This document shows, one piece after another, positions 32,931-54,648 of a DNA stretch of 55,296 nt. Under the pieces are notes generated by a model. It saw nothing but the letters and a program-made list of their open reading frames with translations. It ran no database searches and was not told the DNA's origin. Each line of letters begins with the position of its first letter. The first letter of the stretch is position 1. The position numbers and the translations under genes were made by a program. The DNA comes from Promethearchaeia archaeon (lineage in GTDB: Archaea; Asgardarchaeota; Lokiarchaeia; Sigyniarchaeales; SOKP01): NCBI GenBank assembly GCA_029856155.1, contig JAHQWL010000022.1, forward strand, positions 1-55,296. Direction: 5' to 3'.

Positions 32931-33527
32931 TTATCGATCTAAATTGTCAGGCTTTACAAATCCAAGCCGGAGTAAACTTTCCTCAAAATGTCTGATGTCA
33001 TCAGGATCTTCCCACCAATATGGAACAGCCCATTCGCCCCTCATCAATTTCTCCATTATCTCCTTGAAATATCCCGCATATCTATCTGCGTGGGCACGAT
33101 TCGACTTTAACTTGTCTATATTCAGTATTCTCCTGAATATTCTATAGAATTCCTTCAATTCTAAAGGTTTAATTACATAACAATTAGCGTGAAGATTATA
33201 GGCTTTTATTAAATCTTCATTTGTGTCAGATACAGTTAAAATTACTACGGGAATTCGCTTTAATTCTTCATCTCGCTTGATTTCTTCTAATACCTCGAAT
33301 CCATTTCTCTTTGGCAAATTTAAATCTAAAAGAATTAAATTAGGGGTACTGACATTAGAATATTTCCCATTTTTCTTTAGGAAGTCTATTGCTTCAACAC
33401 CATCTCGAACTACATCTAAGCTACTAACTATTCTCCCCTTCTGAAGGACTTCTTTCGTAAGGCGAATATCTGCGGCATTATCTTCTACGAGTAATATTTT
33501 TGCTTTTACTTTTTTATATTCATTCAT
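32931..33527 (-). CDS. Response regulator receiver (Rcp-like) with an atypical C-terminal tail
   Basis: ILLVEDN, LILLDLNLPKRNG, IPVVILT, ANCYVIKP. Confidence 0.85.
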   Translation of the reverse strand: MNEYKKVKAKILLVEDNAADIRLTKEVLQKGRIVSSLDVVRDGVEAIDFLKKNGKYSNVSTPNLILLDLNLPKRNGFEVLEEIKRDEELKRIPVVILTVSDTNEDLIKAYNLHANCYVIKPLELKEFYRIFRRILNIDKLKSNRAHADRYAGYFKEIMEKLMRGEWAVPYWWEDPDDIRHFEESLLRLGFVKPDNLDR

Positions 33528-33539
33528 TATTAACTCTAA

Positions 33540-34607
33540 TTATTCTTTAATTTTTTTTGGAAAAATTGTAAAGAAGAAGGTTGATCCTTTACCTATTTCT
33601 GATTCTACCCATATTTTTCCACCATATCGTTGAACTATCTTCTTACATATAGGTAATCCTATCCCTGTACCGGGATATTCTTCTTTAGTATGTAGTCGGT
33701 AAAAAATATTAAAAAGCTTATCAAAAAAATTTGACTCAATACCTATACCATTATCTTTTACAGAGAATAACCATTCATCATTGATCTTATTTACCCCGAT
33801 ATGAATTCTAGGGGGTTCTTTTCTTCGGAATTTTATAGCATTGCTAAGTAAATTCTGAAATAATTGAGTAAATTGAGTTTTATCCACTTTCAATGTTGGC
33901 ATTCTATCATAAGTTATAACCGCACCACTCTCTTTTATTGATTCTTGCAGATTAAATAAAGCATCCTTTAAAATATTTTCAAGATTTGTCAATTTAGAAG
34001 GTTTAGCATGGGTTGTGATTCTTGAATATGATAATAGGTCTTTTATAAGCGTATTCATTATTTTTGCACCGTCTGTAATGAAATGTATAAATTCTTTACC
34101 ATCTTTGTCCATTTTTTCTTTATATTTATCTTCTAAAAGTTGAGAAAAGCTTACAATTGCTCGTAAAGGTTCTTGTAGGTCATGAGATGCTACGTAAGCA
34201 AATTGTTGTAAATCTTCATTAGAACGCCTTAAATCCTCCGTTATTTCATTAAATTCAATTTCTCTTCTTGAAATATGTTCTGATAAGAATGATACAACTA
34301 TTCCCACTACTATTAAGGAGATTGCTCTAACAAAATTATTAATAGTGTCTAGAGTAAAAAATTGATCATCTAGAATGAGATGAATAATAATCAATATTGC
34401 AGCTAAAAATGTGGGAATGACTAATCCTTTTCTTTTCCACCATAAACACGCTTAAATTGAAGGGAAATAGAAAAAATGTGCAACTAAGATTGAAGTATTA
34501 AGAATTACCTCGAAGTAATAAATTAATAAACATGAAACAATAATTAAAATTAAAATAATCAAAAATCTTATTTTCTGTTCTTTAAACTTCAAATTCATTA
34601 CAATCAT
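33540..34607 (-). pseudogene. Membrane sensor histidine kinase interrupted by an in-frame TAA at 34452-34454
   Basis: FAYVASHDLQEPLR H-box, NLLSNAIKF, DNGIG, GTGIGL; upstream TM region continues in frame through HFFYFPSI*ACLWWKRKG. Confidence 0.75.
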
Positions 34608-34970: not shown

Positions 34971-35864
34971 ATAGAGAATAAAAAGCGTGACATACTACTA
35001 ATTGAAGATAATTCTGCTGATGTACGTCTTATTGAAGAATTATTAAAAACTTCTAAAGACTTTAAGTTTAATCTAGAATCACATCCTCGTCTTTCCGATA
35101 GTTTAAATAATCTAAGAACTAAACAATTTGATATTATTTTATTAGATTTAACTTTACCAGATAGCGATAGAGAATCCACCTTAGAAAGAGTTTTGAGTGT
35201 AACTGATAGGATTCCTATAATAGTCTTAACGGGGTTAGATGATAAGGAATTTGCATTGCAATCTCTTCAAAAAGGAGCTCAAGATTATTTAGTAAAAGGT
35301 GAGCTTAATGGACCAAGTCTAATACGATCAGTAATATATGCTATTGAACGACATAGATTTGAAAGTGAAAAGACAAGAGATAAAGCTCTAAAAATGCAAT
35401 TCGATGAAAAAGATAAAGAAATTCTTAATTTTTTACAGGAAAATTATAGAATCTCTTATAAAGATTTAAGTAAAAAAGTAGATCTAGCCGCTAGTACTAT
35501 ACATAATCGAGTGCAAAATATGATAAAACAGGGAATAATAAGAAAATTTGATACACTCGTAGATCCATTTAAAGTTGGATATGAATCTATAGCTATTCTT
35601 GGTCTCTCTGTTGATCCACTGAAATTGGATGATGTCGCAAAAAAGTTGGCCAGTTATGATGAGATTCAATTAGTTGCTTCTTCAACTGGAGATCATAATT
35701 TATTAGTAAAAATTATTGCTATAGATGAGAAAAATCTTTGGAGATTTGTTAATGAAGAAATTAAAACTATGAATGGAATACAATTACCTATGCATGTTTC
35801 AAGTTTTATAGATATTTTTAAAATGACTCATAAGATAAATTTTGATATGGAAAAAAAAAAATAA
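34971..35864 (+). CDS. Receiver domain fused to an Lrp/AsnC transcription regulator; proposed ATA start
   Basis: ILLIEDN...IILLDLTLPD...IIVLTG...DYLVK, then DEKDKEIL...ISYKDLSKKVDLAASTIHNRV and STGDHNL. Confidence 0.85.
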   Translation: MENKKRDILLIEDNSADVRLIEELLKTSKDFKFNLESHPRLSDSLNNLRTKQFDIILLDLTLPDSDRESTLERVLSVTDRIPIIVLTGLDDKEFALQSLQKGAQDYLVKGELNGPSLIRSVIYAIERHRFESEKTRDKALKMQFDEKDKEILNFLQENYRISYKDLSKKVDLAASTIHNRVQNMIKQGIIRKFDTLVDPFKVGYESIAILGLSVDPLKLDDVAKKLASYDEIQLVASSTGDHNLLVKIIAIDEKNLWRFVNEEIKTMNGIQLPMHVSSFIDIFKMTHKINFDMEKKK

Positions 35865-35867
35865 AAC

Positions 35868-36248
35868 CTAAGGAAAAATTCCTCTCAATTCAATTGCTTT
35901 AGCTAATCTCGAAATAGCAATAATATAAGAGGCTATTTGTAAGGTGACATTCTTTTCTTTTGATGATTTATAAACATTCTCGAATGCATTAACAAGAATA
36001 TTCTTTAATTCATGATTAATTCTTTCTAATTTCCAAAAATAACTATGATTATCTTGAATATATTCAAAATACGAGACACAAACACCTCCAGCATTAGCAA
36101 GAATATCAGGAACTACTGTTATCCCTTTTTTCTTCAAGATCTTATCGGCTTCTGGAGTAGTTGGGCCATTAGCTCCTTCTAATACAATTTTACATTTTAC
36201 ATTATTAACATTTGCTATGGTTATCTGGTTTTCCATTGCTGCAGGAAT
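35868..36248 (-). pseudogene. gdhA: C-terminal fragment of glutamate dehydrogenase (Glu/Leu/Phe/Val DH)
   Basis: IPAAMENQIT, EGANGPTT, VPDILANAGGV.VSYFE, RGIFP; in-frame stop just upstream, N-terminal catalytic domain absent. Confidence 0.8.
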
Positions 36249-36355: not shown

Positions 36356-37792
36356 TTAAAAATAATCATCTAATAATATGTTATTTTTTATATATTTGAG
36401 ATTATTTTTTATATAAATTGTTTCTAACTCCTTGAAAGCTCCTAATTTGAATTCTTTTAAGTTCTTCTCAAAAGTTTCTTTTAAATTTTGAAATTCTTCT
36501 TTAAATACATTTACGAGATTATTTGGTTTGTAAAATTCATTTATAGAAGATATCCATTTTCTTTGTTTTAAAAAATTAAGGGCAAGATTAATCTCACTAG
36601 ACTCTTTTTTCATTACGGCACTTAACATAGATAAATCCGCATTTTCTAAAGAAAGAAGTGTGAGATAAGTTTTTGCTTCCAGTTCAGGAATATTAAATAA
36701 TTTCAATGCCGAAATCAATTTTTCATTCATATCATTGACTTTTAATTTCTTTCTTAAACAAGCATTCTTAATTTGTGAAATATCTATATGATTATTAGAA
36801 ATTATATTCTTAGATTTTAAAGTATCTTTAAAAATTTTCATACCAATGTCAGAACGAATGATAACGCTATTCCATGTATTCTCTTCAGAACCAATATTTC
36901 CTACAGATATATCTGAATATTCAGCAGTATAATCTTTACAATATTGACAACTTGACCAACTATATTTTTTAATAGACTTAATGGGAATATTCTTCATACT
37001 TCCATCTTTAGTATAGGCAATGAAATGACCGTGAGATACTTCAAGTTTTTTCACTTCATTTAATTTAATTCCAAGTTCTTTTTGAATTATATCTTTCATT
37101 GAATCATAGCTATAATTTGACGTACAATAAAGTCCAATTATTAAAGAAAATTTGCCATATTTATCTGAAAGTGGAGGAAAAAATTGTAGTTTGCGTACTG
37201 CGTGAATTTGACATGGCATACCTACAAATGCAATTTTTTTTAGTTTGTATTTATTAATAGCATCTCTATAAATTGATAATGTAGGTGCTAATGCATATAC
37301 AGAACCTGTTGCTTCTAATATTTCTTTTGAGGTCCTTGCTATAATTGGTTTTGGCATCCAATTTTCATCTTTACTTGTAAGAAGAGCTCCATCAATTAAT
37401 CCTTCATCAAGAGCATGAATAAGTATTGAAGATACAATTCCACCATTTTGAGATAGCTTTAAAATATTCTCATTAGTACTTTTAGCAAGCATAACTTTTT
37501 GATAATGCCCAATTAAAGGATCTTTAGTAGTATGCTCAGGAAAAATTTCCTTCTCAAAGAATTTTTCTGGAAAATAAGTTTTTGCACAATATTTGTAACA
37601 TAACGAACATTCAGGATCATAATCTAAAAGTAATGGTTCATTTTCATTTATTCCAATGCGGGGGCAAATTGACATACAAGTTCCACATAAAACACAATTC
37701 TTATTGCTAATAACTAAGTCATATAAATCTTGGAATCCATACTCAGAAATATCACAATGAAAATAATCCTTAATTATTTCCCTAGGTATCAT
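36356..37792 (-). CDS. FrhB/FdhB-family F420-interacting Fe-S flavoprotein fused to a C-terminal TrmB-like winged helix
   Basis: CVLCGTC, SQNGGIVS, FVGMPCQ, IGLYC, CQYCKDYTAEYSDISVG; tail LKLFNIPELEAKTYLTLL...LNFLKQRKWI. Confidence 0.82.
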   Translation of the reverse strand: MIPREIIKDYFHCDISEYGFQDLYDLVISNKNCVLCGTCMSICPRIGINENEPLLLDYDPECSLCYKYCAKTYFPEKFFEKEIFPEHTTKDPLIGHYQKVMLAKSTNENILKLSQNGGIVSSILIHALDEGLIDGALLTSKDENWMPKPIIARTSKEILEATGSVYALAPTLSIYRDAINKYKLKKIAFVGMPCQIHAVRKLQFFPPLSDKYGKFSLIIGLYCTSNYSYDSMKDIIQKELGIKLNEVKKLEVSHGHFIAYTKDGSMKNIPIKSIKKYSWSSCQYCKDYTAEYSDISVGNIGSEENTWNSVIIRSDIGMKIFKDTLKSKNIISNNHIDISQIKNACLRKKLKVNDMNEKLISALKLFNIPELEAKTYLTLLSLENADLSMLSAVMKKESSEINLALNFLKQRKWISSINEFYKPNNLVNVFKEEFQNLKETFEKNLKEFKLGAFKELETIYIKNNLKYIKNNILLDDYF

Positions 37793-38102
37793 TTTTAAAT
37801 ATTCACCTTTTAGAATATTTCTATTATTATTAATTTTAATAATGATAGTATCAGGAATACCATATAATATATATTAATTTAGGCATATAAATGATCCATT
37901 TTGATATATTAGTATAGAAATAGTTTCATAATAAATATTAATTAAAAAAAAAACCCAAAGATAATATTTTATAAATAGATTATGATTTTAGAAATACTCA
38001 TTCACTAGATTATTCATGGCATTAATTTACAAAAGGCTCTTTTGAAGAATAAATAGATTTTTTAAAATATTTCTAAGATAAAATTTTAAAAATAAAAAAA
38101 AA

Positions 38103-39782
38103 TTAATGAGAAATTTTTAATTCCCTTCCAAATAGTATATTTTTAGCCTTTTCAAATGCTTCATTATAATCAAAAATTCTTTTTCCCTTAGTAATTGCAG
38201 CTTCTTTTAAAATAGAGGCCTCAACTTCTGATTTAAGCCTACCAACAGCTAATGCTCCTGTACCATTTATAGTCGGATAAATTTCTTTATTATTATCTTT
38301 AGGTTTTAATCCCTCAATTCCATAAGGTGGTACTAAATTTATGTCTATAACAATTTTGTTATTCAATTTGTTCAGGAGTTCTTTTGATAATACTTGAACT
38401 CCCACTGCTGCTAAGGACCATATAATATCGGCACTTTTTACTATTTCTAATTTCTTTTCATCATTAGGTGCAAAAACACCAATAATTTCATTTTCTCCAA
38501 CTTCCTCATTTAATTCTTTAACTAGCTGATTTATAAATTCTCCATTCGATTTTTCCCAAGTTTCTACTAAATACGTTTTACAATTTAATTTTGCCGCAAT
38601 TATGGCTGCAATTCTCCCGACTGGACCTGCTCCTAAAATAACTACTTTTTTGCCTTTTAAGTCATATAAATCATGTTCTCTAGCAAATTCCATTGTCTTC
38701 GCAACTACAGAAGAAGCGGTGGTGTGTGAACCACGAGGATCTATTATCACGGGGCATTCAAATGGGGGTACTAAAGACTCAATAACTTTTTTGGCAATTT
38801 TTTCTCCTTCTTTTACATTTGAACCACCAATAAAGAAAGTTGTAGGTGCTTTTGGTTTACGGGAAAAAATTGCATCTTGTACGAGTTTTGGTACTTGATC
38901 AGCAGTCATCTTGCTAATAGGTATAACTACATCAAAATTTGCATCATAAGCCATATTTATATCGAAAGGAGAGGCATTATCATCAGTATCAAAAAAATAA
39001 CATATTTTTTCTAATGACTCTTTCTTTTTGATTTTAATCGGTGATAATTCGAGTATACTTTTTCCAATTATATTTTTGATTGAATTAGAACCAGGATTAT
39101 TTATTATTTTTGCAGACCTTTTAATTTTAATTTCTTCAGTTTGGATGCCTAATTCTGCTGTTAAATTTCTTATTCCTTCAAAGTGTCTTGAATCACAGAT
39201 AAAGAATGCTGTTAACTTTTTTTCTATCATCTGTTTCGCAAATTGTAGAATTCCCATCATCATCCAAGCTTCTCGAACACTATATCTTATCTCATTTTCT
39301 TGAGAATCGTACTCTTGCTGTAAATATTCCTTCCATAAAACCATTCGATGAAATTCTAAATCATCTTTTAGAATTTTTTTCTCACTATTCTTTTTAGTCT
39401 CTTCAATTGATTTTATTAATTGTTTTACAAGCATTCTCTGGTCCTCTAAATTTGAGGAAAGATAATTTTCTGCGTTTTCTGAAATATCTACCATCTTATA
39501 TGGGACTTTATTTTCTCTAAATTTTGTTTCTAATGGATCTTCGTTGGATATTGTATCTTCCCATCGACTACCTTTCTCTTCGATTGCAAAATCAGGATTA
39601 TATTTACCTATAAGATTTTCAATTAAACTAAGATATTCCCTGGAAATTAGGTGCAAATTCCATACTAAGTCATGCTTTTTCTGGGCTGTGGGTTCAAACC
39701 ACCAATCTATTGGAAACTCACTTTCTATTAAGACCAATTTTAAACTTTTTTTTTTTAAAGGTTTTAATTCTAAAACTTCCAT
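38103..39782 (-). CDS. MtdA/MtdB-type NAD(P)-dependent methylene-H4MPT/H4F dehydrogenase with a ~250-aa N-terminal extra domain
   Basis: FDTD..ASPFDINMAYD, QDAIFSR, FIGG, PPF...DPRGSHTTA, GAGPVG, DINLVPPYGIEG, GALAVG.LK. Confidence 0.82.
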   Translation of the reverse strand: MEVLELKPLKKKSLKLVLIESEFPIDWWFEPTAQKKHDLVWNLHLISREYLSLIENLIGKYNPDFAIEEKGSRWEDTISNEDPLETKFRENKVPYKMVDISENAENYLSSNLEDQRMLVKQLIKSIEETKKNSEKKILKDDLEFHRMVLWKEYLQQEYDSQENEIRYSVREAWMMMGILQFAKQMIEKKLTAFFICDSRHFEGIRNLTAELGIQTEEIKIKRSAKIINNPGSNSIKNIIGKSILELSPIKIKKKESLEKICYFFDTDDNASPFDINMAYDANFDVVIPISKMTADQVPKLVQDAIFSRKPKAPTTFFIGGSNVKEGEKIAKKVIESLVPPFECPVIIDPRGSHTTASSVVAKTMEFAREHDLYDLKGKKVVILGAGPVGRIAAIIAAKLNCKTYLVETWEKSNGEFINQLVKELNEEVGENEIIGVFAPNDEKKLEIVKSADIIWSLAAVGVQVLSKELLNKLNNKIVIDINLVPPYGIEGLKPKDNNKEIYPTINGTGALAVGRLKSEVEASILKEAAITKGKRIFDYNEAFEKAKNILFGRELKISH

Positions 39783-40411
39783 TAATTATTCCCCTCTTGT
39801 TTTATAATTATATTTTGGATATTATGAAAATTATTCAATTCATAAACTATTACTTCTATATGAAGTTCTCTTAATTGTTTAGTTATTTCTGATAGAGTTC
39901 TTTCATGGAAAAAATGTATAAGAGACAAATCTTCATTTTCATGCAATCTTGCTAAATCTAGAATTTTTTTAACAATCCATTGTGGTCTTGTTTTTGTTTC
40001 TAAAATTTTATTATCATGATTGACTTCCTTTTTAAGAACATCAATCCAGGATTTTAAATTTAGCCCTTTAAAAGAGTTTTTATCATCTAAATTTCTATAT
40101 TCTGTTAATAACTCTCCAATTTGCTCTTCTTTCTTGTTTATCTCTTCAAAAAGGTATCCATATGCATACTCAGGCATATCTAATAAGTGAAATTCTAAAT
40201 CTAGAGCATTTAAAACAATTGAAAGATTAGAATTTTTAAAATCTTTAAAGTTTTCATTATTTATTTCAAGTGTAATAAAAGAAACTTCATTATTACTAAC
40301 CAATTCCTTTAATGTATCAATATCATTAAGTTTAGGGTTAATTCTAATTTTGTCTATTAAATATATAGTAATTTTTTTGTTGGTTATTGGTTTTAATTCT
40401 AACACTTCCAT
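39782..40411 (-). CDS. Hypothetical protein paralogous to the N-terminal domain of the downstream Mtd fusion
   Basis: Identical MEVLELKP start; D(M/I).E.A..YL, W...L..E and R..W....IL..A shared; TAATG overlap. Confidence 0.75.
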   Translation of the reverse strand: MEVLELKPITNKKITIYLIDKIRINPKLNDIDTLKELVSNNEVSFITLEINNENFKDFKNSNLSIVLNALDLEFHLLDMPEYAYGYLFEEINKKEEQIGELLTEYRNLDDKNSFKGLNLKSWIDVLKKEVNHDNKILETKTRPQWIVKKILDLARLHENEDLSLIHFFHERTLSEITKQLRELHIEVIVYELNNFHNIQNIIIKQEGNN

Positions 40412-46299: not shown

Positions 46300-47430
46300 A
46301 TGACCGAATTAGCTTATAAGAAACTTTTACAAAACGAAGTAAAAACATTTGAAGATCTTAAAAATGAAATAATTGATGGTAATAAATGCTGTGCATGTGC
46401 TGCTTGCATAGCATATTGCGAAAGTCAAGGTTTTGATGTTATTGAAATGAAGGGAGATAATCCTGAGTTTAAATCAGAAAAAAGTGTTGAAAATTGTACT
46501 AAATGTGGTGTCTGTTATTATATTTGTCCTCAAACTAAAGTATTATTAAAACAATTAAATGAAATTTATGGTATTGAAGATAATATTGGAAAAGTTGTTA
46601 AAATTCTTGCTGCTAAAACAACAAATACTGGATTAGAAAAAGTTGGACAAGATGGAGGGGTTGTTTCAGCAATTCTAACATATTTATTTGAAAAACATAA
46701 AATTGATGCCGCTATTGTTTCGGAATTTGACCAAAATTTTAAGCCCGTTCCAAAAATTATATTTGATAAAGAGGATTTATTTAAATCCGCAGGTACACGT
46801 TATTCTATTTCTCCTCAAATATTCCCTTTAAAAAATTTATACACCATACCGAAAAAAATTCTTATCAAGAAGGAGATATTTGATATTGATGAGCTAAGAA
46901 TAGCATTTATTGGAACTCCTTGTCAATGTAGGGCTGTTAATAAAATGAAATTTTTACATGTTAAACCAGCTCATGTCATTAAATATATTATAGGCCTTTT
47001 CTGTTTTGAGAATTTTATTTATGACAAATTATATGATATTTTAAAAAGAGAAATAAAAGTTGATCCTACTAATATCAAGAAAACTTGGATAAAAAAGAAT
47101 TTCTTTATCCAAACCAAAGATAATAAAGAATTCGAAATCGATATAAGAACTCTTAATCCCGCAGTAAGAAATAATTGCCATGAATGTGATGAATTCACGG
47201 GAAGATTTACAGATATTAGTGTTGGGGCATCCGGAGCACCAGAAGGATATTCTATGATACTAATTAGAACTGATAATGGTAAGAAGGTAATAAATAATAT
47301 GCTTTCAAAAGGGATAATTGAGCAATTTATTGTTCCATCTAACAGAACTATTGAGTGGAAGAATAAAAAATTGGAGTGGTATAATAAATTAATTTCCTTA
47401 AAGATCCGAAATCAAACTAATATGAACTAA
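46300..47430 (+). CDS. FrhB/FdhB-family F420-interacting subunit with N-terminal ferredoxin
   Basis: CCACAAC, CTKCGVC, GQDGGVVS, AGTRY, GTPCQ, GLFCFENF, CHEC...DISVG. Confidence 0.88.
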   Translation: MTELAYKKLLQNEVKTFEDLKNEIIDGNKCCACAACIAYCESQGFDVIEMKGDNPEFKSEKSVENCTKCGVCYYICPQTKVLLKQLNEIYGIEDNIGKVVKILAAKTTNTGLEKVGQDGGVVSAILTYLFEKHKIDAAIVSEFDQNFKPVPKIIFDKEDLFKSAGTRYSISPQIFPLKNLYTIPKKILIKKEIFDIDELRIAFIGTPCQCRAVNKMKFLHVKPAHVIKYIIGLFCFENFIYDKLYDILKREIKVDPTNIKKTWIKKNFFIQTKDNKEFEIDIRTLNPAVRNNCHECDEFTGRFTDISVGASGAPEGYSMILIRTDNGKKVINNMLSKGIIEQFIVPSNRTIEWKNKKLEWYNKLISLKIRNQTNMN

Positions 47431-50040: not shown

Positions 50041-52590
50041 ATGGATATATACTCGATATTATCTCATCCGTTTAGAAGAAAAATCTTGCTCCTTTTAGAA
50101 AAAGAGGGTTATATTCCCTATACAGATTTAATGGAAAAATTGGGTTTAGATACAACAGGACAGTTAAATTTCCATCTCAAAAAAATTGGTACATTAATCA
50201 ATAAAGATAAAAAATCATACTTTCTTACGGAAGATGGTAAACGTGTATTAAAGATCTTAAATCTTAACAAAAGAATTTTATCAGGAGAAAATATTGATGA
50301 ATATTTAGATTCTCAGGGAAGTGAAATAAGCCGAATTGGAGTAATAATTTGTAATTGCAATACAGAAATTTCAAATGTAATTAATATAATTGCACTTGAA
50401 AAATATGTACATAAGCTAAGAAAGGTTGTGTCTATAAAAATCTTCGAAAATTTATGCCAACAAAAAAACTTCGATAAAATTACCCATTGGGTAAAAGATA
50501 ATTTTTTAAACAAGATTGTAATAGCAGCATGCTCTCCAAAAACTCATCAACATCTTTTTAAACGAATTTTTGATGGTGTTATTGAACACGTTAACATAGA
50601 AATTGCAAACATTAGAGAACAATGTTGTTGGGTACATCAATTCGGAATAAATGAAATCGATCCCTCTCTTCCATTAGAAAAGGCAGAATTATTAATTGAA
50701 GCAGCAATTGAACGCGTTAGTCTTCAAAAGAAAGTAAAAGTAAAGAGAGTTGAAATTGAAAAGAGTGTTGCAATTTTAGGGGGCGGAATAGCGGGTATAA
50801 CACTTGCATTAAATTTAGCTCGAGCAGGAATTAAAGTATATGTTATTGAAAAATCACCAACTTTGGGAGGTAAAGTAGCTAGATGGGATCGAATTCATAA
50901 TATGGGCGATTGTTCTATATGTTTCATTTCAGAATTAATAGGTGAGTTGGTGAATGAAAAAAATGTAAAAATACTTACTAATACTGAAATAGAAAGTGTT
51001 TCAGGAGAAGTTGGAAATTTTACTCTTAACTTGATTAAAAAACCGCGATATGTAGATACAAAAAAATGTACTGGTTGTAAACAATGCATAGAAGTATGCA
51101 GTATTGAAAAACAAAATCAGTATGAATTTGGATTAAATAGTAGAAAAATTATTTATATCCCATTTATTCATTCTTTTCCCTATGTTCCTTTAATTGATGA
51201 ATCAGATATCAAAAATTGTCTTAACTGTAGAATCTGTGAGCGTGCTTGCGTGAATAAAGCAATAGATTTGACACAAAAACCAGAAAAAATTGAAATTAAA
51301 GTAGGTACTAAAGTTATCGCTATTGGTTCTGATCTTTTTTCAGATTTAGACGAATATGGTTATAACCCACAAAAAGATATAATTACATCATCAGAGTTTG
51401 AAAGAATGTTATCTTCTGATGGATTCACAGAAGGTAAAATAGTAAAAATTTCTGATAAAACACCTCCAAAGACAATTTCAATTATTCAAAATGCTGGATC
51501 ACCTGATCATCAAGATAAACTTCAAGATATCCTTGCGTTAAAATATTTAAATTATATTGAAGTTAAAAATCCTGAATGTAAAGTCAATATTTTCTACGAT
51601 TTAAGTAAGATAAAAAAACCCGATGACTTTTTGCTAAGATCCACGGATTCTAGAATACACTACATTAATAAAATAAAACTAATTGAAAAAAACGGTCAAA
51701 AAATAGTAAAAGGTAATTCAAAAGAATATCCAAGTGATTTAGTTATATTAAATCAAACACTGGTACCAAATAAAGATTTAAAAGCATTTCGAAAAACAAT
51801 GGATTTCACATTGGATGATTATGGTTTTATGAGTGAAGAAACATTGGCATCTGGAATATATGGGGTTGGAACTATATTTGGTCCATTAGATTATAATTCT
51901 ACCATCTCAACAGCTAATAATACTGCTATTAAAATCATTTCACTACTCTCTAATGATTATTTGATAGCGGAGTTTAGTGGTATTGAAATCGATGATAACA
52001 AGTGTGGTTTATGCGGATTATGTTCTAAAATTTGTCCTTATAATGCCATTACAATCGAATCAGAAAAAGTAAGTATAGATAAATTTAAATGCAAAGGTTG
52101 TGGTACATGCGCTAGTATATGCCCTACTAATGCGATAGATTTAAATATAGATAATTCTGAGAAGATTTTAAAATCAATTGAAATTTTTTCGAAATTTAGA
52201 AAAAAACCTAAAATTATTGCCTTTTGTTGTCGTTCGTGTGGATATGCTGCTGCTGATGATGCTGGACTTAAAAAGATCTCATATCATCCAAATATTTTTA
52301 TTTTAAGTGTCCCTTGCACAGGTCGTATAGATACCAATTTCATAATTAAATCATTTGAGTTAGGTTTTGATGGAGTAATGATTATCGGTTGTAGAAAAAA
52401 TGCATGTCGATATATTGATGGAGTAGAAAAAGTAGAAAAAAAAATAACGATCTTAAAGAATATTATCCCTACAAAATACCGTGAACGAATAATTCTTAAA
52501 CATATGAATGCTGTTGAAGGTAATAAGTTTGCTGAAGTTGCTAATAAATTTTATAAAAAATTACTAGAGGAGGTTAAATTTGAAGCGTAA
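50041..52590 (+). CDS. Winged-helix (ArsR-like) - HdrA-like - MvhD triple fusion
   Basis: LSHPFRRKILLLL...GQLNFHLKKI...YFLTEDG; ICNC, AACSP, REQCCWVH, GGGIAG, DCSIC, two ferredoxin pairs; FCCRSC, PCTGR, GCRKNACRY. Confidence 0.88.
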   Translation: MDIYSILSHPFRRKILLLLEKEGYIPYTDLMEKLGLDTTGQLNFHLKKIGTLINKDKKSYFLTEDGKRVLKILNLNKRILSGENIDEYLDSQGSEISRIGVIICNCNTEISNVINIIALEKYVHKLRKVVSIKIFENLCQQKNFDKITHWVKDNFLNKIVIAACSPKTHQHLFKRIFDGVIEHVNIEIANIREQCCWVHQFGINEIDPSLPLEKAELLIEAAIERVSLQKKVKVKRVEIEKSVAILGGGIAGITLALNLARAGIKVYVIEKSPTLGGKVARWDRIHNMGDCSICFISELIGELVNEKNVKILTNTEIESVSGEVGNFTLNLIKKPRYVDTKKCTGCKQCIEVCSIEKQNQYEFGLNSRKIIYIPFIHSFPYVPLIDESDIKNCLNCRICERACVNKAIDLTQKPEKIEIKVGTKVIAIGSDLFSDLDEYGYNPQKDIITSSEFERMLSSDGFTEGKIVKISDKTPPKTISIIQNAGSPDHQDKLQDILALKYLNYIEVKNPECKVNIFYDLSKIKKPDDFLLRSTDSRIHYINKIKLIEKNGQKIVKGNSKEYPSDLVILNQTLVPNKDLKAFRKTMDFTLDDYGFMSEETLASGIYGVGTIFGPLDYNSTISTANNTAIKIISLLSNDYLIAEFSGIEIDDNKCGLCGLCSKICPYNAITIESEKVSIDKFKCKGCGTCASICPTNAIDLNIDNSEKILKSIEIFSKFRKKPKIIAFCCRSCGYAAADDAGLKKISYHPNIFILSVPCTGRIDTNFIIKSFELGFDGVMIIGCRKNACRYIDGVEKVEKKITILKNIIPTKYRERIILKHMNAVEGNKFAEVANKFYKKLLEEVKFEA

Positions 52591-53338
52591 ATTTGTGATA
52601 ATATCTTTAACTTCTTGTAGTGGATGCATTTCTTCTCTTATATCGTTAGATATTTTTCCACAATTCCTTGAAAGGACTAAAGTAATTTATTTTCCGTTTA
52701 TTTCCGAAGAAAAAGAAATTGAAGATTGCGATATTTGTTTAGTCGAAGGATGTGTTTCTGAAGAAAATCAAATCCCAATCCTTCGAAAAATCAGAAAACA
52801 AGCAAAAAAAATATATGCATTAGGAACTTGTGCTTGTTTTGGAGGAATTTTAAGCCTATCCGATAAAAAAATGGCAGAACCAATTTCAAGTTATATTGAA
52901 ATTGATGGTATTATCCCCGGTTGTCCACCACCTATGAAACTTTTTGGTAATTGTCTAATTCGATTGGTCGAAAATAAAGAAATAGAACTCTCTGAAAAAA
53001 ATATGTGTGGTAGCTGCCCATTAAGAGGGAACATGGAAATAAATTCTAATATAAATATCTCAAAAATTACACCAAATCCAGAAGATATTAAACTTGATGA
53101 GGAAAACTCTGAATGTTTTTTAGCAAGGGGTATTTTATGTTTAGGACCCATAACACGAGATGGGTGTGAACATAAGTGCATTAAGATGGGGCTTCCTTGT
53201 GAAGGATGTATAGGATCAGTATCAAAAGATTTTACTTCTAATATTGTTAACTATTTGAGTTTGATAAATTTATCTCAAGAACTCAAAAACTACACTGGTA
53301 TTTTTTATCGATTCTCGAAACCAAAATTGGAGTGGTGA
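52580..53338 (+). CDS. mvhG: Group 3 [NiFe]-hydrogenase small subunit (MvhG-like)
   Basis: SCSGC, VEG, GTCACFGG, IPGCPP, distal CGSCP...CFL...CLGPIT..GC...C...PCEGC. Confidence 0.85.
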   Translation: MKRKFVIISLTSCSGCISSLISLDIFPQFLERTKVIYFPFISEEKEIEDCDICLVEGCVSEENQIPILRKIRKQAKKIYALGTCACFGGILSLSDKKMAEPISSYIEIDGIIPGCPPPMKLFGNCLIRLVENKEIELSEKNMCGSCPLRGNMEINSNINISKITPNPEDIKLDEENSECFLARGILCLGPITRDGCEHKCIKMGLPCEGCIGSVSKDFTSNIVNYLSLINLSQELKNYTGIFYRFSKPKLEW

Positions 53339-54648
53339 TAAAACTGTTAAAAGTAATTGATGTTTGTAAACGTGTTGAAGGGCATGGTGAAGTAAAAATT
53401 TTAATCCAAAATGATGAAATTTCGTTAGTAAATTTTGAATTTAATATTTATAGAGGTTTTGAAAATTTCTTAATAGGAAAGAAATTATTAGATATACCAA
53501 AAATAGTTCCTAGGATATGTGGATTATGTTATGCTTCTCAGGCAATCGCTAGTTGTAAAGCAATTGAGGATATATATAATATCAAGGTTTCAGAACAAGC
53601 AAAACTTTTAAGGCGGATTTTAATGACTGGAGAATTAATCAAATCCCATTCTATGAATTTCTTTTTCCAAGCTTTACCAGATCTATTAAATATTTTTAAT
53701 ATTACTCAAAAAACTACAACTGCTTATGATTTAATTAATTATGACCCTCAATTAACTTCAAATATATATGAACTAATTAAAATTGGCAATGAAATTAATA
53801 ATTTGTTTGGGGGTAGATCAGTTCATTTAATTTCAATCATTCCTGGAGGAATTATTTATTCTCCTTCTAAAAAAATTATTTCAATAGCTAAAAAAAGATT
53901 TCAAAATGCTTTAATCAGTTTAGAATGGATTATAGAAAAATTTATTGAGTTATTTTCTCATCAATTACCACCTAAAGAATTTGATCCTCCAAATCTTATC
54001 TATCTTGGTCTCTCGAATTTAATGAATTATAATCGATATTCAGGTAGTTTATCATTCAAAGAAGCTAATAAAAATATGATAGAATTTGAAAAGTATAATT
54101 ATTCTTCTTATTTTGGAAAGGAGCCTGAGTTACGTGGAATTGATTTTTACTTTGATAATATAAAAAATGTCATAGTAGGGCCTTTATCCAGATACAATAT
54201 CAACGAGAATTATGGTACAGATGAAATTCAAACTTATCTTGAATATTTTGATAAACCATGGAAAAATAGTATTCTATTTGCTAATTTTATTAGATTATTG
54301 GAAATGTATATGGAAAGTATCCAGAGTATACAAATTTTAGATGATCATAATTTAAATATTAAACAAGAACTCCCTTCTATGAATTCCGTAAAAAGGGTTG
54401 ATGGAATCGGGGTTATTGAAGCCCCCAGAGGGACACTTTTACATCATTATTACGTTAATAATCATAATTCTCTTGATCGAATAAAATTATTTGTTGCTAC
54501 TGAGTTTAATATTCCAATAATAAATGAAATGATTACGAATTATGCAAAAGAATTATTTGAAAGAAAGGGAGATATTAATTTAGTGAAAAATAATGTTCAG
54601 AGGATAATTAGAGCATTCGATCCATGTATTTCATGTGCAACTCATTAA
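53332..54648 (+). CDS. mvhA: Group 3 [NiFe]-hydrogenase large subunit (MvhA-like) with no C-terminal extension
   Basis: RVEGHG, RGFE, RICGLC, EAPRGTLLHHY, RAFDPCISCATH-TAA. Confidence 0.88.
   Translation: MVIKLLKVIDVCKRVEGHGEVKILIQNDEISLVNFEFNIYRGFENFLIGKKLLDIPKIVPRICGLCYASQAIASCKAIEDIYNIKVSEQAKLLRRILMTGELIKSHSMNFFFQALPDLLNIFNITQKTTTAYDLINYDPQLTSNIYELIKIGNEINNLFGGRSVHLISIIPGGIIYSPSKKIISIAKKRFQNALISLEWIIEKFIELFSHQLPPKEFDPPNLIYLGLSNLMNYNRYSGSLSFKEANKNMIEFEKYNYSSYFGKEPELRGIDFYFDNIKNVIVGPLSRYNINENYGTDEIQTYLEYFDKPWKNSILFANFIRLLEMYMESIQSIQILDDHNLNIKQELPSMNSVKRVDGIGVIEAPRGTLLHHYYVNNHNSLDRIKLFVATEFNIPIINEMITNYAKELFERKGDINLVKNNVQRIIRAFDPCISCATH

Follow-up and report, generated by a model that had tools for sequence, protein, structure and literature searches.

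An FrhB-family F420-dependent flavoprotein with a TrmB-type winged helix at its C terminus in Asgard archaea

FrhB-type modules link the pool of cofactor F420 to many archaeal redox enzymes, and the FrhB paralogs of Asgard archaea, anaerobic methanotrophic archaea (ANME) and alkane-oxidising archaea are acknowledged to be a reservoir of reactions not yet known (PMC9012536, PMC11493965). In the zeta subunit of the CO dehydrogenase (CODH) of Candidatus Ethanoperedens thermophilum (PDB chain 8riu_B; Lemaire et al. 2024, PMC11493965), the subunit is anchored to its partner by a ferredoxin (Fd) domain (residues 1-83) with two [4Fe-4S] clusters, an F420-reductase domain (residues 84-349) binds one [4Fe-4S] cluster and FAD, and an extension at the C terminus (residues 350-370) forms the homodimer interface. 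Here we analysed a gene located at 36356..37792 (-) of a 55,296-nucleotide stretch of DNA from a Promethearchaeia archaeon (contig JAHQWL010000022.1, hereafter the window), whose product joins an Fd domain and an FrhB-type enzyme to a TrmB-like winged helix-turn-helix (wHTH).

The fusion protein is a member of the FrhB/FdhB/FpoF family of F420-dependent flavoproteins (PF04422 and PF04432), and its tail is a genuine TrmB-type winged helix followed by a long helix. The fusion is conserved but patchy in Asgard archaea, and it is also found in some ethane-oxidising archaea. The explanation that we prefer, and to which we give about an even chance, is that the protein is an active module of the F420 oxidoreductase type, with a tail of TrmB origin that would have been exapted for dimerisation or docking. 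No account of the fusion was found in the literature searched, and the public annotation label reads only 'F420 hydrogenase beta subunit C-terminal domain'.

Like CODH zeta and FwdI (8rja_E), the fusion protein has an N-terminal Fd domain followed by an FrhB-type FAD/[4Fe-4S] F420-reductase domain, and like zeta it bears a C-terminal appendage from about residue 350. The appendage comprises 20 residues in zeta, whereas in the fusion protein it reaches 130 residues and consists of the TrmB-type wHTH and the long helix; in addition, the first Cys of the second Fd motif is replaced by Asp in the fusion protein, unlike in zeta. The zeta and FwdI genes are encoded with their partner enzymes, whereas the fusion gene lacks a constant partner. 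More generally, the known plug-in F420-reductase modules (CODH zeta, FwdI and ANME FrhB6/7) share with the fusion protein the presence of Fd and F420 reductase in one subunit, but their clustering with partner genes was not found here. FrhB itself (6qii_B, 9r51_B and 4ci0_C) shares the FrhB_N and FrhB_C core at 33-36% identity (TMt 0.83-0.87); unlike the FrhB of the [NiFe] hydrogenase, the fusion protein additionally has an Fd domain at its N terminus and the tail at its C terminus, and neither frhA nor frhG lies next to its gene. With regard to the tail, Pyrococcus furiosus TrmB (3qph) and TrmBL2 (5bpd/5box) have the same fold of wHTH plus long helix and are detectably homologous to it, and its size and layout resemble those of TrmB proteins that consist of the DNA-binding domain only, such as Methanosarcina MreA (~110 aa). 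Unlike TrmB regulators, in which an N-terminal DNA-binding domain is combined with TrmB_C, the fusion protein carries the domain at the C terminus of an enzyme, gave no Pfam match to the TrmB_C effector domain, and has an acidic recognition segment that has lost the TrmB signature.

The enzyme core and the winged-helix tail

The open reading frame (ORF) list and its translation gave a 478-aa product (P0001) with the domain order Fd-FrhB-TrmB. The features of the gene and of its upstream region are as follows:

36356..37792 (-): whole gene, encoding the 478-aa Fd-FrhB-TrmB fusion protein P0001 (ORF translation; N terminus aligned with 117 homologs)
37538..37735 (-): ferredoxin-like N-terminal domain, residues ~20-85 (weak Pfam Fer4 matches, invariant columns, comparison with tail-less relatives)
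37271..37495 (-): FrhB_FdhB_N, residues 100-174, including the QNGG and GSxY motifs (Pfam E 1.7e-23, motif invariance)
36803..37240 (-): FrhB_FdhB_C, residues 185-330, including C194, C223, C282, C285 and the PCQ and RK motifs (Pfam E 7.8e-42, invariance, Foldseek)
36707..36787 (-): basic connecting helices, residues 336-362 (alignments, charge profile, confidence of the full-length model)
36515..36706 (-): TrmB-type winged helix-turn-helix, residues 363-426 (PF01978, profile match to TrmB and TrmBL2 in the PDB, AlphaFold, Foldseek)
36563..36604 (-): counterpart of the recognition helix, residues 397-410 (column-wise comparison with 96 canonical TrmB DNA-binding domains, charge test, pairwise identity)
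36383..36517 (-): long C-terminal helix, residues 426-470 (AlphaFold, hydrophobicity profile, invariant columns)
37884..37897 (-): BRE/TATA-like block GGATCATTTATATG, a putative promoter element (conserved in 5 orthologous upstream regions)
37803..37807 (-): GGTGA ribosome-binding site, 10 nt before the ATG and within the conserved leader (upstream alignment)

In Pfam searches FrhB_FdhB_N scored 83 bits against a cut-off of 22 and FrhB_FdhB_C 143 bits against 23.3, and a search of the host's own genome returned the FrhB_FdhB_C match at the same coordinates. The Fer4 matches, at residues 27-44, were weak, and TrmB PF01978 was matched at residues 363-417 with a borderline score (cut-off 25.6; the entire protein scored 23.4 bits and the isolated tail 25.9). 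The body of the protein passed the NCBIfam model of the FrhB subfamily, PRK09325 (276 bits vs a cut-off of 269), and reached neither the true-FrhB equivalog TIGR03289 (252.5 vs 331.5) nor the FpoF models NF040616 (179.6 vs 475) and PRK09326 (181 vs 444). The full-length AlphaFold model (predicted local distance difference test, pLDDT, 88.6; predicted template modelling score, pTM, 0.86) had as its best structural match by Foldseek the CODH zeta chain 8riu_B (33% identity, TMt 0.83, 341 columns, E 4.5e-31), and its further fold matches were FrhB (9r51_B and 6qii_B), FwdI (8rja_E) and Fsr (7np8 also matched). The original prediction of a ferredoxin and FrhB-family domain followed by a TrmB-like tail was thus borne out by Pfam, profile matching, AlphaFold and Foldseek.

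The cofactor motifs of the FrhB core are intact. Residues C194, C223, C282 and C285, which we take from knowledge of the family to be the ligands of the FrhB [4Fe-4S] cluster, were invariant in 33 of 33 tailed proteins, as were G117, G118, G163, S164, Y166, R200 and K201; Q195 was kept in 32 and N116 and P193 in 29 of these proteins, and the invariant residues of the core agreed with those of the tail-less relatives. The Fd domain had been described as complete, and it is indeed present, but only seven of its Cys are invariant (C33, C36, C39, C43, C62, C65 and C69), and a near-invariant D59 (codon 37616-37618, -) takes the position that the first Cys would have in the second motif, D-P-E-C-x2-C-x3-C. 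This residue may indicate an Asp-ligated or a [3Fe-4S] cluster. The pattern of seven Cys plus Asp was also observed in tail-less relatives from ANME-1 and Methanosarcinales, other relatives having eight Cys. The frequency of the most common residue was 0.72-0.75 in the body vs 0.56-0.59 in the tail.

The host genome encodes CofH (456.8 bits, cut-off 374.1), next to which lies a CofG-like gene, as well as two CofE (257 and 210 bits) and CofD (154 bits), so that F420 is plausibly available to the enzyme. The same genome has about 13 FrhB paralogs, and the tail is found on the product of the fusion gene alone. One of them, encoded in the window at 46300..47430, is a 376-aa protein with Fer4 and FrhB domains and, as had been noted before, without the tail. 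TrmB tails on the other host FrhB paralogs of ~500 aa were ruled out, given that these carry N-terminal extensions or an unrelated tail instead; a paralog of 495 aa (L096:988-2472 (-), contig C77 of genome G000), for example, ends in an unrelated C-terminal tail of ~150 aa.

To define the tail, residues 345-478 and their equivalents from 45 genomic loci were aligned (46 tails including that of the window). All 46 tails matched PF01978 (best E 1.2e-10), and the profile built from them matched TrmB in the PDB (3qph, E 5.9e-5, chain residues 5-105) as well as TrmBL2 and AF2008, with matches that spanned the wHTH and the helix after it. The AlphaFold model of the tail (pLDDT 85.7 overall and >90 over residues 20-110) showed four helices, a beta-hairpin wing and then a helix of 38 residues, which extends to 45 residues (426-470) in the full-length model, and Foldseek placed TrmBL2 chains on top (TMq 0.63-0.65), followed by MarR-type regulators. 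Taken together, the match in every tail, the PDB profile match, the predicted topology and the TrmBL2 hits make the borderline TrmB score firm and agree with the original assignment of the tail to a TrmB-like wHTH. The match of the tail to the MreA model NF053756 was weak (19 bits vs a cut-off of 100).

An exhaustive search with the tail profile against 1.8 billion representatives returned at E <1e-10 only the own family, consisting of fragments and fusions of 454-481 aa, and canonical TrmB proteins of ~250 aa came next at 40-56 bits. A 133-aa protein on an ENA contig of 664 nt (P0130) starts with Met, has a distinct N terminus and scores 143 bits against the tail profile; it is possibly a stand-alone homolog of the tail, or else the product of a gene that was split or truncated.

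The recognition helix and the long helix

N-terminal domains from 96 canonical TrmB proteins were aligned, together with the 46 tails, to the tail profile, and the residues at the positions of the recognition helix were compared. In the canonical proteins, the N-terminal half of this helix follows the signature P-R-S/T-K/R-V-Y (P in 55%, R in 48%, then S/T, R/K in 59%, V/I, and Y in 89%). The tails, in contrast, have E at the first position in 54% (70% acidic) and Y in 19%, with an entropy of 2.5-3.1 bits, and the corresponding residues 397-403 of P0001 (E-S-S-E-I-N-L) are without the TrmB signature. Judged by this alignment, the DNA-reading signature of TrmB is lost from the tails. The mean net charge of the N-half was -0.91 in the tails vs +0.62 in the canonical domains (p 2.9e-12), that of helix 2 was -0.83 vs +0.36 (p 5.6e-7), and that of the whole wHTH core was +1.07 vs +2.53. 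The positions that hold the fold together, L408, R411 and W413, vary little or not at all among the tails, and the stretch connecting the body with the wHTH is basic, with an invariant K348, K349 in >=90% and a mean net charge of +3.7 over profile positions 1-18.

The N-half of the recognition helix is also the least conserved segment of the protein, with a top-residue frequency of 0.40 vs 0.72-0.75 in the body. In a set of 14 close orthologs with an overall identity of 78%, its identity was 54% and that of the remaining tail 72-75%; across all 117 sequences of the homolog alignment, the N-half was 26% identical. No TrmB-type palindromic operator was recognised when five orthologous upstream regions were aligned. 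An imperfect inverted repeat, ATTATTAA-AA-TTAATAAT, is located at 37826-37843 (-), in that part of the conserved leader which separates the TATA-like block from the ribosome-binding site; it is partly kept in orthologs and is the sole operator candidate, a weak one in AT-rich DNA of 26% GC.

The hydrophobicity profile of the long helix reveals a stripe of positions that are 100% hydrophobic at 3-4-4 spacing, which suggests that one face of the helix is buried, and the invariant residues specific to the tail are E433, N463 and N464 in this helix together with K348. In the full-length model there is no linker of low confidence between body and tail (pLDDT >=87 over residues 341-360), and the pTM of 0.86 would be above what a freely hinged domain of 130 residues should allow. 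The start of the tail, at about residue 345-350, coincides with that of the dimerisation extension of 8riu_B (residues 350-370).

Distribution, origin and genomic setting

A protein search retrieved at least 120 full-length homologs of 472-493 aa and 49-87% identity, most of them with a precomputed PF01978 match, and their named groups were Loki-/Promethearchaeota, Thorarchaeota, Heimdall-/Hodarchaeota and Hermodarchaeota. The alignment of 117 full-length sequences contained no indels at the junction of body and tail or inside the tail. At the level of genome contigs, Asgard loci aligned through residue ~475; the alignment of relatives from ANME-1, Methanosarcinales, Bathyarchaeia, Hadarchaeia and Desulfobacterota ended at residue ~330-353. 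Among 400 genomes of the phylum the tail was present in 50, nearly always within an open frame of ~475-490 aa; by family, it occurred in 43 of 134 genomes of the window's own, in five of five of a second and in one of 31 of a third. Within the window's genus the fusion was detected in 23 of 53 species and was absent from several complete genomes. A fusion without conservation would have spoken against the original prediction, but this one recurs in 50 genomes of the phylum and in 117 or more full-length homologs.

Outside Asgard archaea, a divergent cluster of fusion proteins (P0138, 471 aa) with the same Fd-FrhB-TrmB architecture (TrmB 30.9 bits) comes from the ethane oxidisers Candidatus Argoarchaeum ethanivorans and Candidatus Ethanoperedens thermophilum. 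The fusion was found in four of 284 genomes of the GTDB order to which the Methanoperedens genome belongs (Methanosarcinales), and in none of the 68 genomes of the order of G401, the genome of locus L058. In a tree built from the enzyme bodies alone, all tailed proteins fell into one FrhB subclade (SH-aLRT 92; support of the Asgard core 99), in which the joining of the ethanotroph proteins with a tail-less Methanoperedens protein was flagged as a long-branch risk. A single origin of the fusion followed by lateral spread is likely from these relationships, and is not proven because of that risk. The earliest-branching tailed protein, P0140, gave 43.9 bits against TrmB and has a more canonical helix (G-I-E-R-K-N-V), which would fit a DNA-reading surface that decayed after the fusion, a suggestion drawn from this one sequence. 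A member of the Asgard core of the tailed subclade (L043:10001-11638 (+)) has no TrmB domain and carries a polyferredoxin of ~200 aa with several Fer4 motifs after residue ~345, in what looks like a swap of the C-terminal module.

With regard to transcription, the BRE/TATA-like block GGATCATTTATATG lies ~95 nt upstream of the ATG, has one match in the window and is likely to be the fusion gene's own promoter. When the neighbours of 45 loci were clustered, no family occurred in more than 16 of them, i.e. the gene has no constant partner. A tail-less FrhB paralog was near the fusion in 16 of the 45 loci (<=600 bp away in 13, often divergently oriented), HdrA-family genes in 14, and a pair of genes encoding a 209-aa (p209) and an Mtd-like protein in 11, and the fusion genes of the ethanotrophs are surrounded by unrelated housekeeping genes. 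In the window this p209/Mtd-like pair lies upstream of the fusion gene on the same strand, with a gap of 310 nt. The pair occupies 38103-40411 (-), where the 559-aa Mtd-like protein (Mpt_N and an NAD(P)-binding domain) overlaps the upstream 209-aa protein; both begin with MEVLELKP and seem to share an N-terminal domain of no known function.

Downstream, the 3' end of the fusion gene abuts the remnant of a glutamate dehydrogenase gene (gdh), its last 122 codons (35868-36236 (-), positions 120-241 of the ELFV_dehydrog (Glu/Leu/Phe/Val) profile); in relatives the gene is complete and encodes 449 aa (L002) or 442 aa (L013). This truncation places the fusion gene at a rearrangement breakpoint of the host genome. 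Moreover, relatives whose neighbours are otherwise syntenic have, at the position of the fusion gene, a paralog of 49-55% identity in the opposite orientation, which indicates that the locus was rearranged. On the same side, the genes at 35193-35864 (+) and 32931-34394 (-) form a block in which a partial REC match is fused to a full Lrp/AsnC regulator next to a histidine kinase/response regulator pair; the REC-Lrp/AsnC and kinase block accompanies the fusion gene also in L002, L013, L022 and L035.

The window contains a second fusion of a wHTH to a redox protein, an 849-aa ORF at 50041..52590 that begins with a DUF7347 of wHTH type (40.5 bits, cut-off 27.6), continues with an HdrA core and ends in a FlpD/MvhD domain. 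Genes for the small (Oxidored_q6) and large (NiFeSe_Hases) subunits of a [NiFe] hydrogenase come after it (50041-54648 (+)), and the 849-aa fusion is kept at 73-83% identity in seven other loci (L001, L003, L010, L011, L024, L027 and L030). The suggestion that grafting DNA-binding domains onto redox enzymes is a recurring strategy therefore holds as a description of architecture, but the second example belongs to a [NiFe]-hydrogenase operon, a setting that suggests enzyme assembly no less than regulation.

The role of the tail

If the tail is structural, F420H2 (or F420) and FAD would exchange hydride in the FrhB core, and electrons would pass via the FrhB [4Fe-4S] cluster and then the two clusters of the Fd-like domain to or from a partner, for which the neighbouring tail-less FrhB paralog or HdrA-type complexes are candidates. 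The winged-helix scaffold, packed on the body of the enzyme, would support the long C-terminal helix, whose hydrophobic stripe would bring two copies of the protein together in the way that this helix pairs the subunits of TrmB and TrmBL2. The wHTH and the long helix would thus take the place of the short dimerisation extension of CODH zeta, and the tail would no longer be a sequence-reading DNA-binding domain. The intact enzyme core and the F420 biosynthesis genes of the host would fit an active enzyme. We favour this explanation because 8riu_B has its homodimer interface just where the tail starts, because the L043 sister protein bears a polyferredoxin at the same position, because the other wHTH-redox fusion of the window lies in a [NiFe]-hydrogenase operon, and because the N-half of the recognition helix is acidic, variable and the fastest-evolving segment while the hydrophobic stripe is kept and no low-confidence linker appears in the model. 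Several observations weigh against it. The wHTH fold with L408, R411 and W413 has been kept without indels, beyond the need of a bare dimerisation helix; the wHTH core is still slightly positive (+1.07) and preceded by a strongly basic stretch (+3.7); and the canonical TrmB domains that served for comparison were picked by their likeness to the tail profile. In addition, the fusion gene has its own conserved leader and putative promoter, and it forms no consistent operon with a partner enzyme (at most 16 of 45 loci, and among housekeeping genes in the ethanotrophs), whereas known plug-in modules cluster with their partners. Finally, the predicted docking and dimerisation are read entirely from the pTM, the pLDDT and the periodicity of the sequence.

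The original prediction saw in the protein a one-component regulator that reads the F420/F420H2 state. PutA and other trigger enzymes, as well as Rex, combine an enzyme or sensor domain that binds a redox cofactor with a DNA-binding domain in one polypeptide, although their folds and cofactors are unrelated to those of the fusion protein (FAD or NADH vs F420/FAD/Fe-S) and their own DNA-binding residues are conserved. In a regulator of this kind the FrhB body would sense F420/F420H2 or the Fe-S state, and a conformational change transmitted through the rigid connection would make the TrmB-type wHTH dimer bind or release DNA. This is possible, yet we consider it improbable on balance, and we are equally doubtful of its more specific form, in which a PutA-like trigger enzyme would be the first transcription factor to read the F420 redox pool directly and would have the adjacent FrhB and Hdr redox genes as its targets, in Asgard archaea as in ethanotrophs, with the flavin/Fe-S state of an active FrhB module gating the DNA-binding dimer and with divergent recognition helices suited to lineage-specific operators. 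Such a role would agree with the whole TrmB fold and its dimerisation helix being kept and not the helix alone, with the conserved scaffold R411 and the basic stretch before the helices, with the retention of the fusion over a long divergence and in two phyla, and with the more canonical helix of P0140 (G-I-E-R-K-N-V, 43.9 bits). A monocistronic gene with its own conserved leader and putative promoter and no constant partner operon would suit it too, as would the production of F420 by the host (Cof genes) and the tail-less FrhB paralog that lies no more than 600 bp away at 13 of the 45 loci, often divergently, as regulators and their targets often do. The sequence, however, gives no backing to a regulator: the signature is lost, the N-half and helix 2 are acidic, and the N-half is the least conserved segment and the fastest to evolve even where the upstream DNA of orthologs is conserved. 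The five aligned upstream regions contained no recognisable operator of TrmB type, and the model has no flexible linker. A sensor would moreover have no obvious need for a complete path of three clusters, but this path is invariant and the parts for catalysis and electron transfer are fully conserved. The absence of the fusion from 30 of the 53 species of the genus, complete genomes included, further indicates that it is no core redox regulator.

A quite unlikely use of the degenerate wHTH would be as a non-specific tether that, together with the basic linker, holds the enzyme to nucleic acid or chromatin, or binds RNA, by a sequence-independent mode like that of TrmBL2. TrmBL2, the best fold match of the tail, is a chromatin protein, K348 (invariant) and K349 (near-invariant) belong to a strongly basic linker, and a variable recognition helix suits binding without reading of sequence. 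Nevertheless, the net acidic helices of the wHTH disfavour even contacts with the DNA backbone, no physiological reason is known for an F420 oxidoreductase on DNA, and the basic stretch may be the last helix of the FrhB fold, as tail-less relatives align up to residue ~349-353. The position of the gene next to the truncated gdh at a breakpoint might also suggest an artefact, be it a mis-assembly, a wrong joining of two genes or a decaying pseudogene. This we regard as hardly credible, since the same uninterrupted frame of ~475-490 aa recurs, free of indels at the junction, in more than 100 independent assemblies, and since purifying selection acts over the whole length of the protein; a mis-assembly or a fused gene call was rejected on the recurrence in these assemblies.

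If the tail is structural, as we favour, the fusion protein would clearly exemplify how a DNA-binding domain was exapted to serve a redox enzyme as an element of its assembly, and the tail, used as bait, would offer a handle on the partner complex. Native enzyme complexes have already been purified from the ethanotroph enrichment culture that yields the ortholog (PMC11493965), and the native fusion protein from such a culture may be within reach. If the tail still binds DNA, the protein would be the first transcription factor that responds directly to F420.

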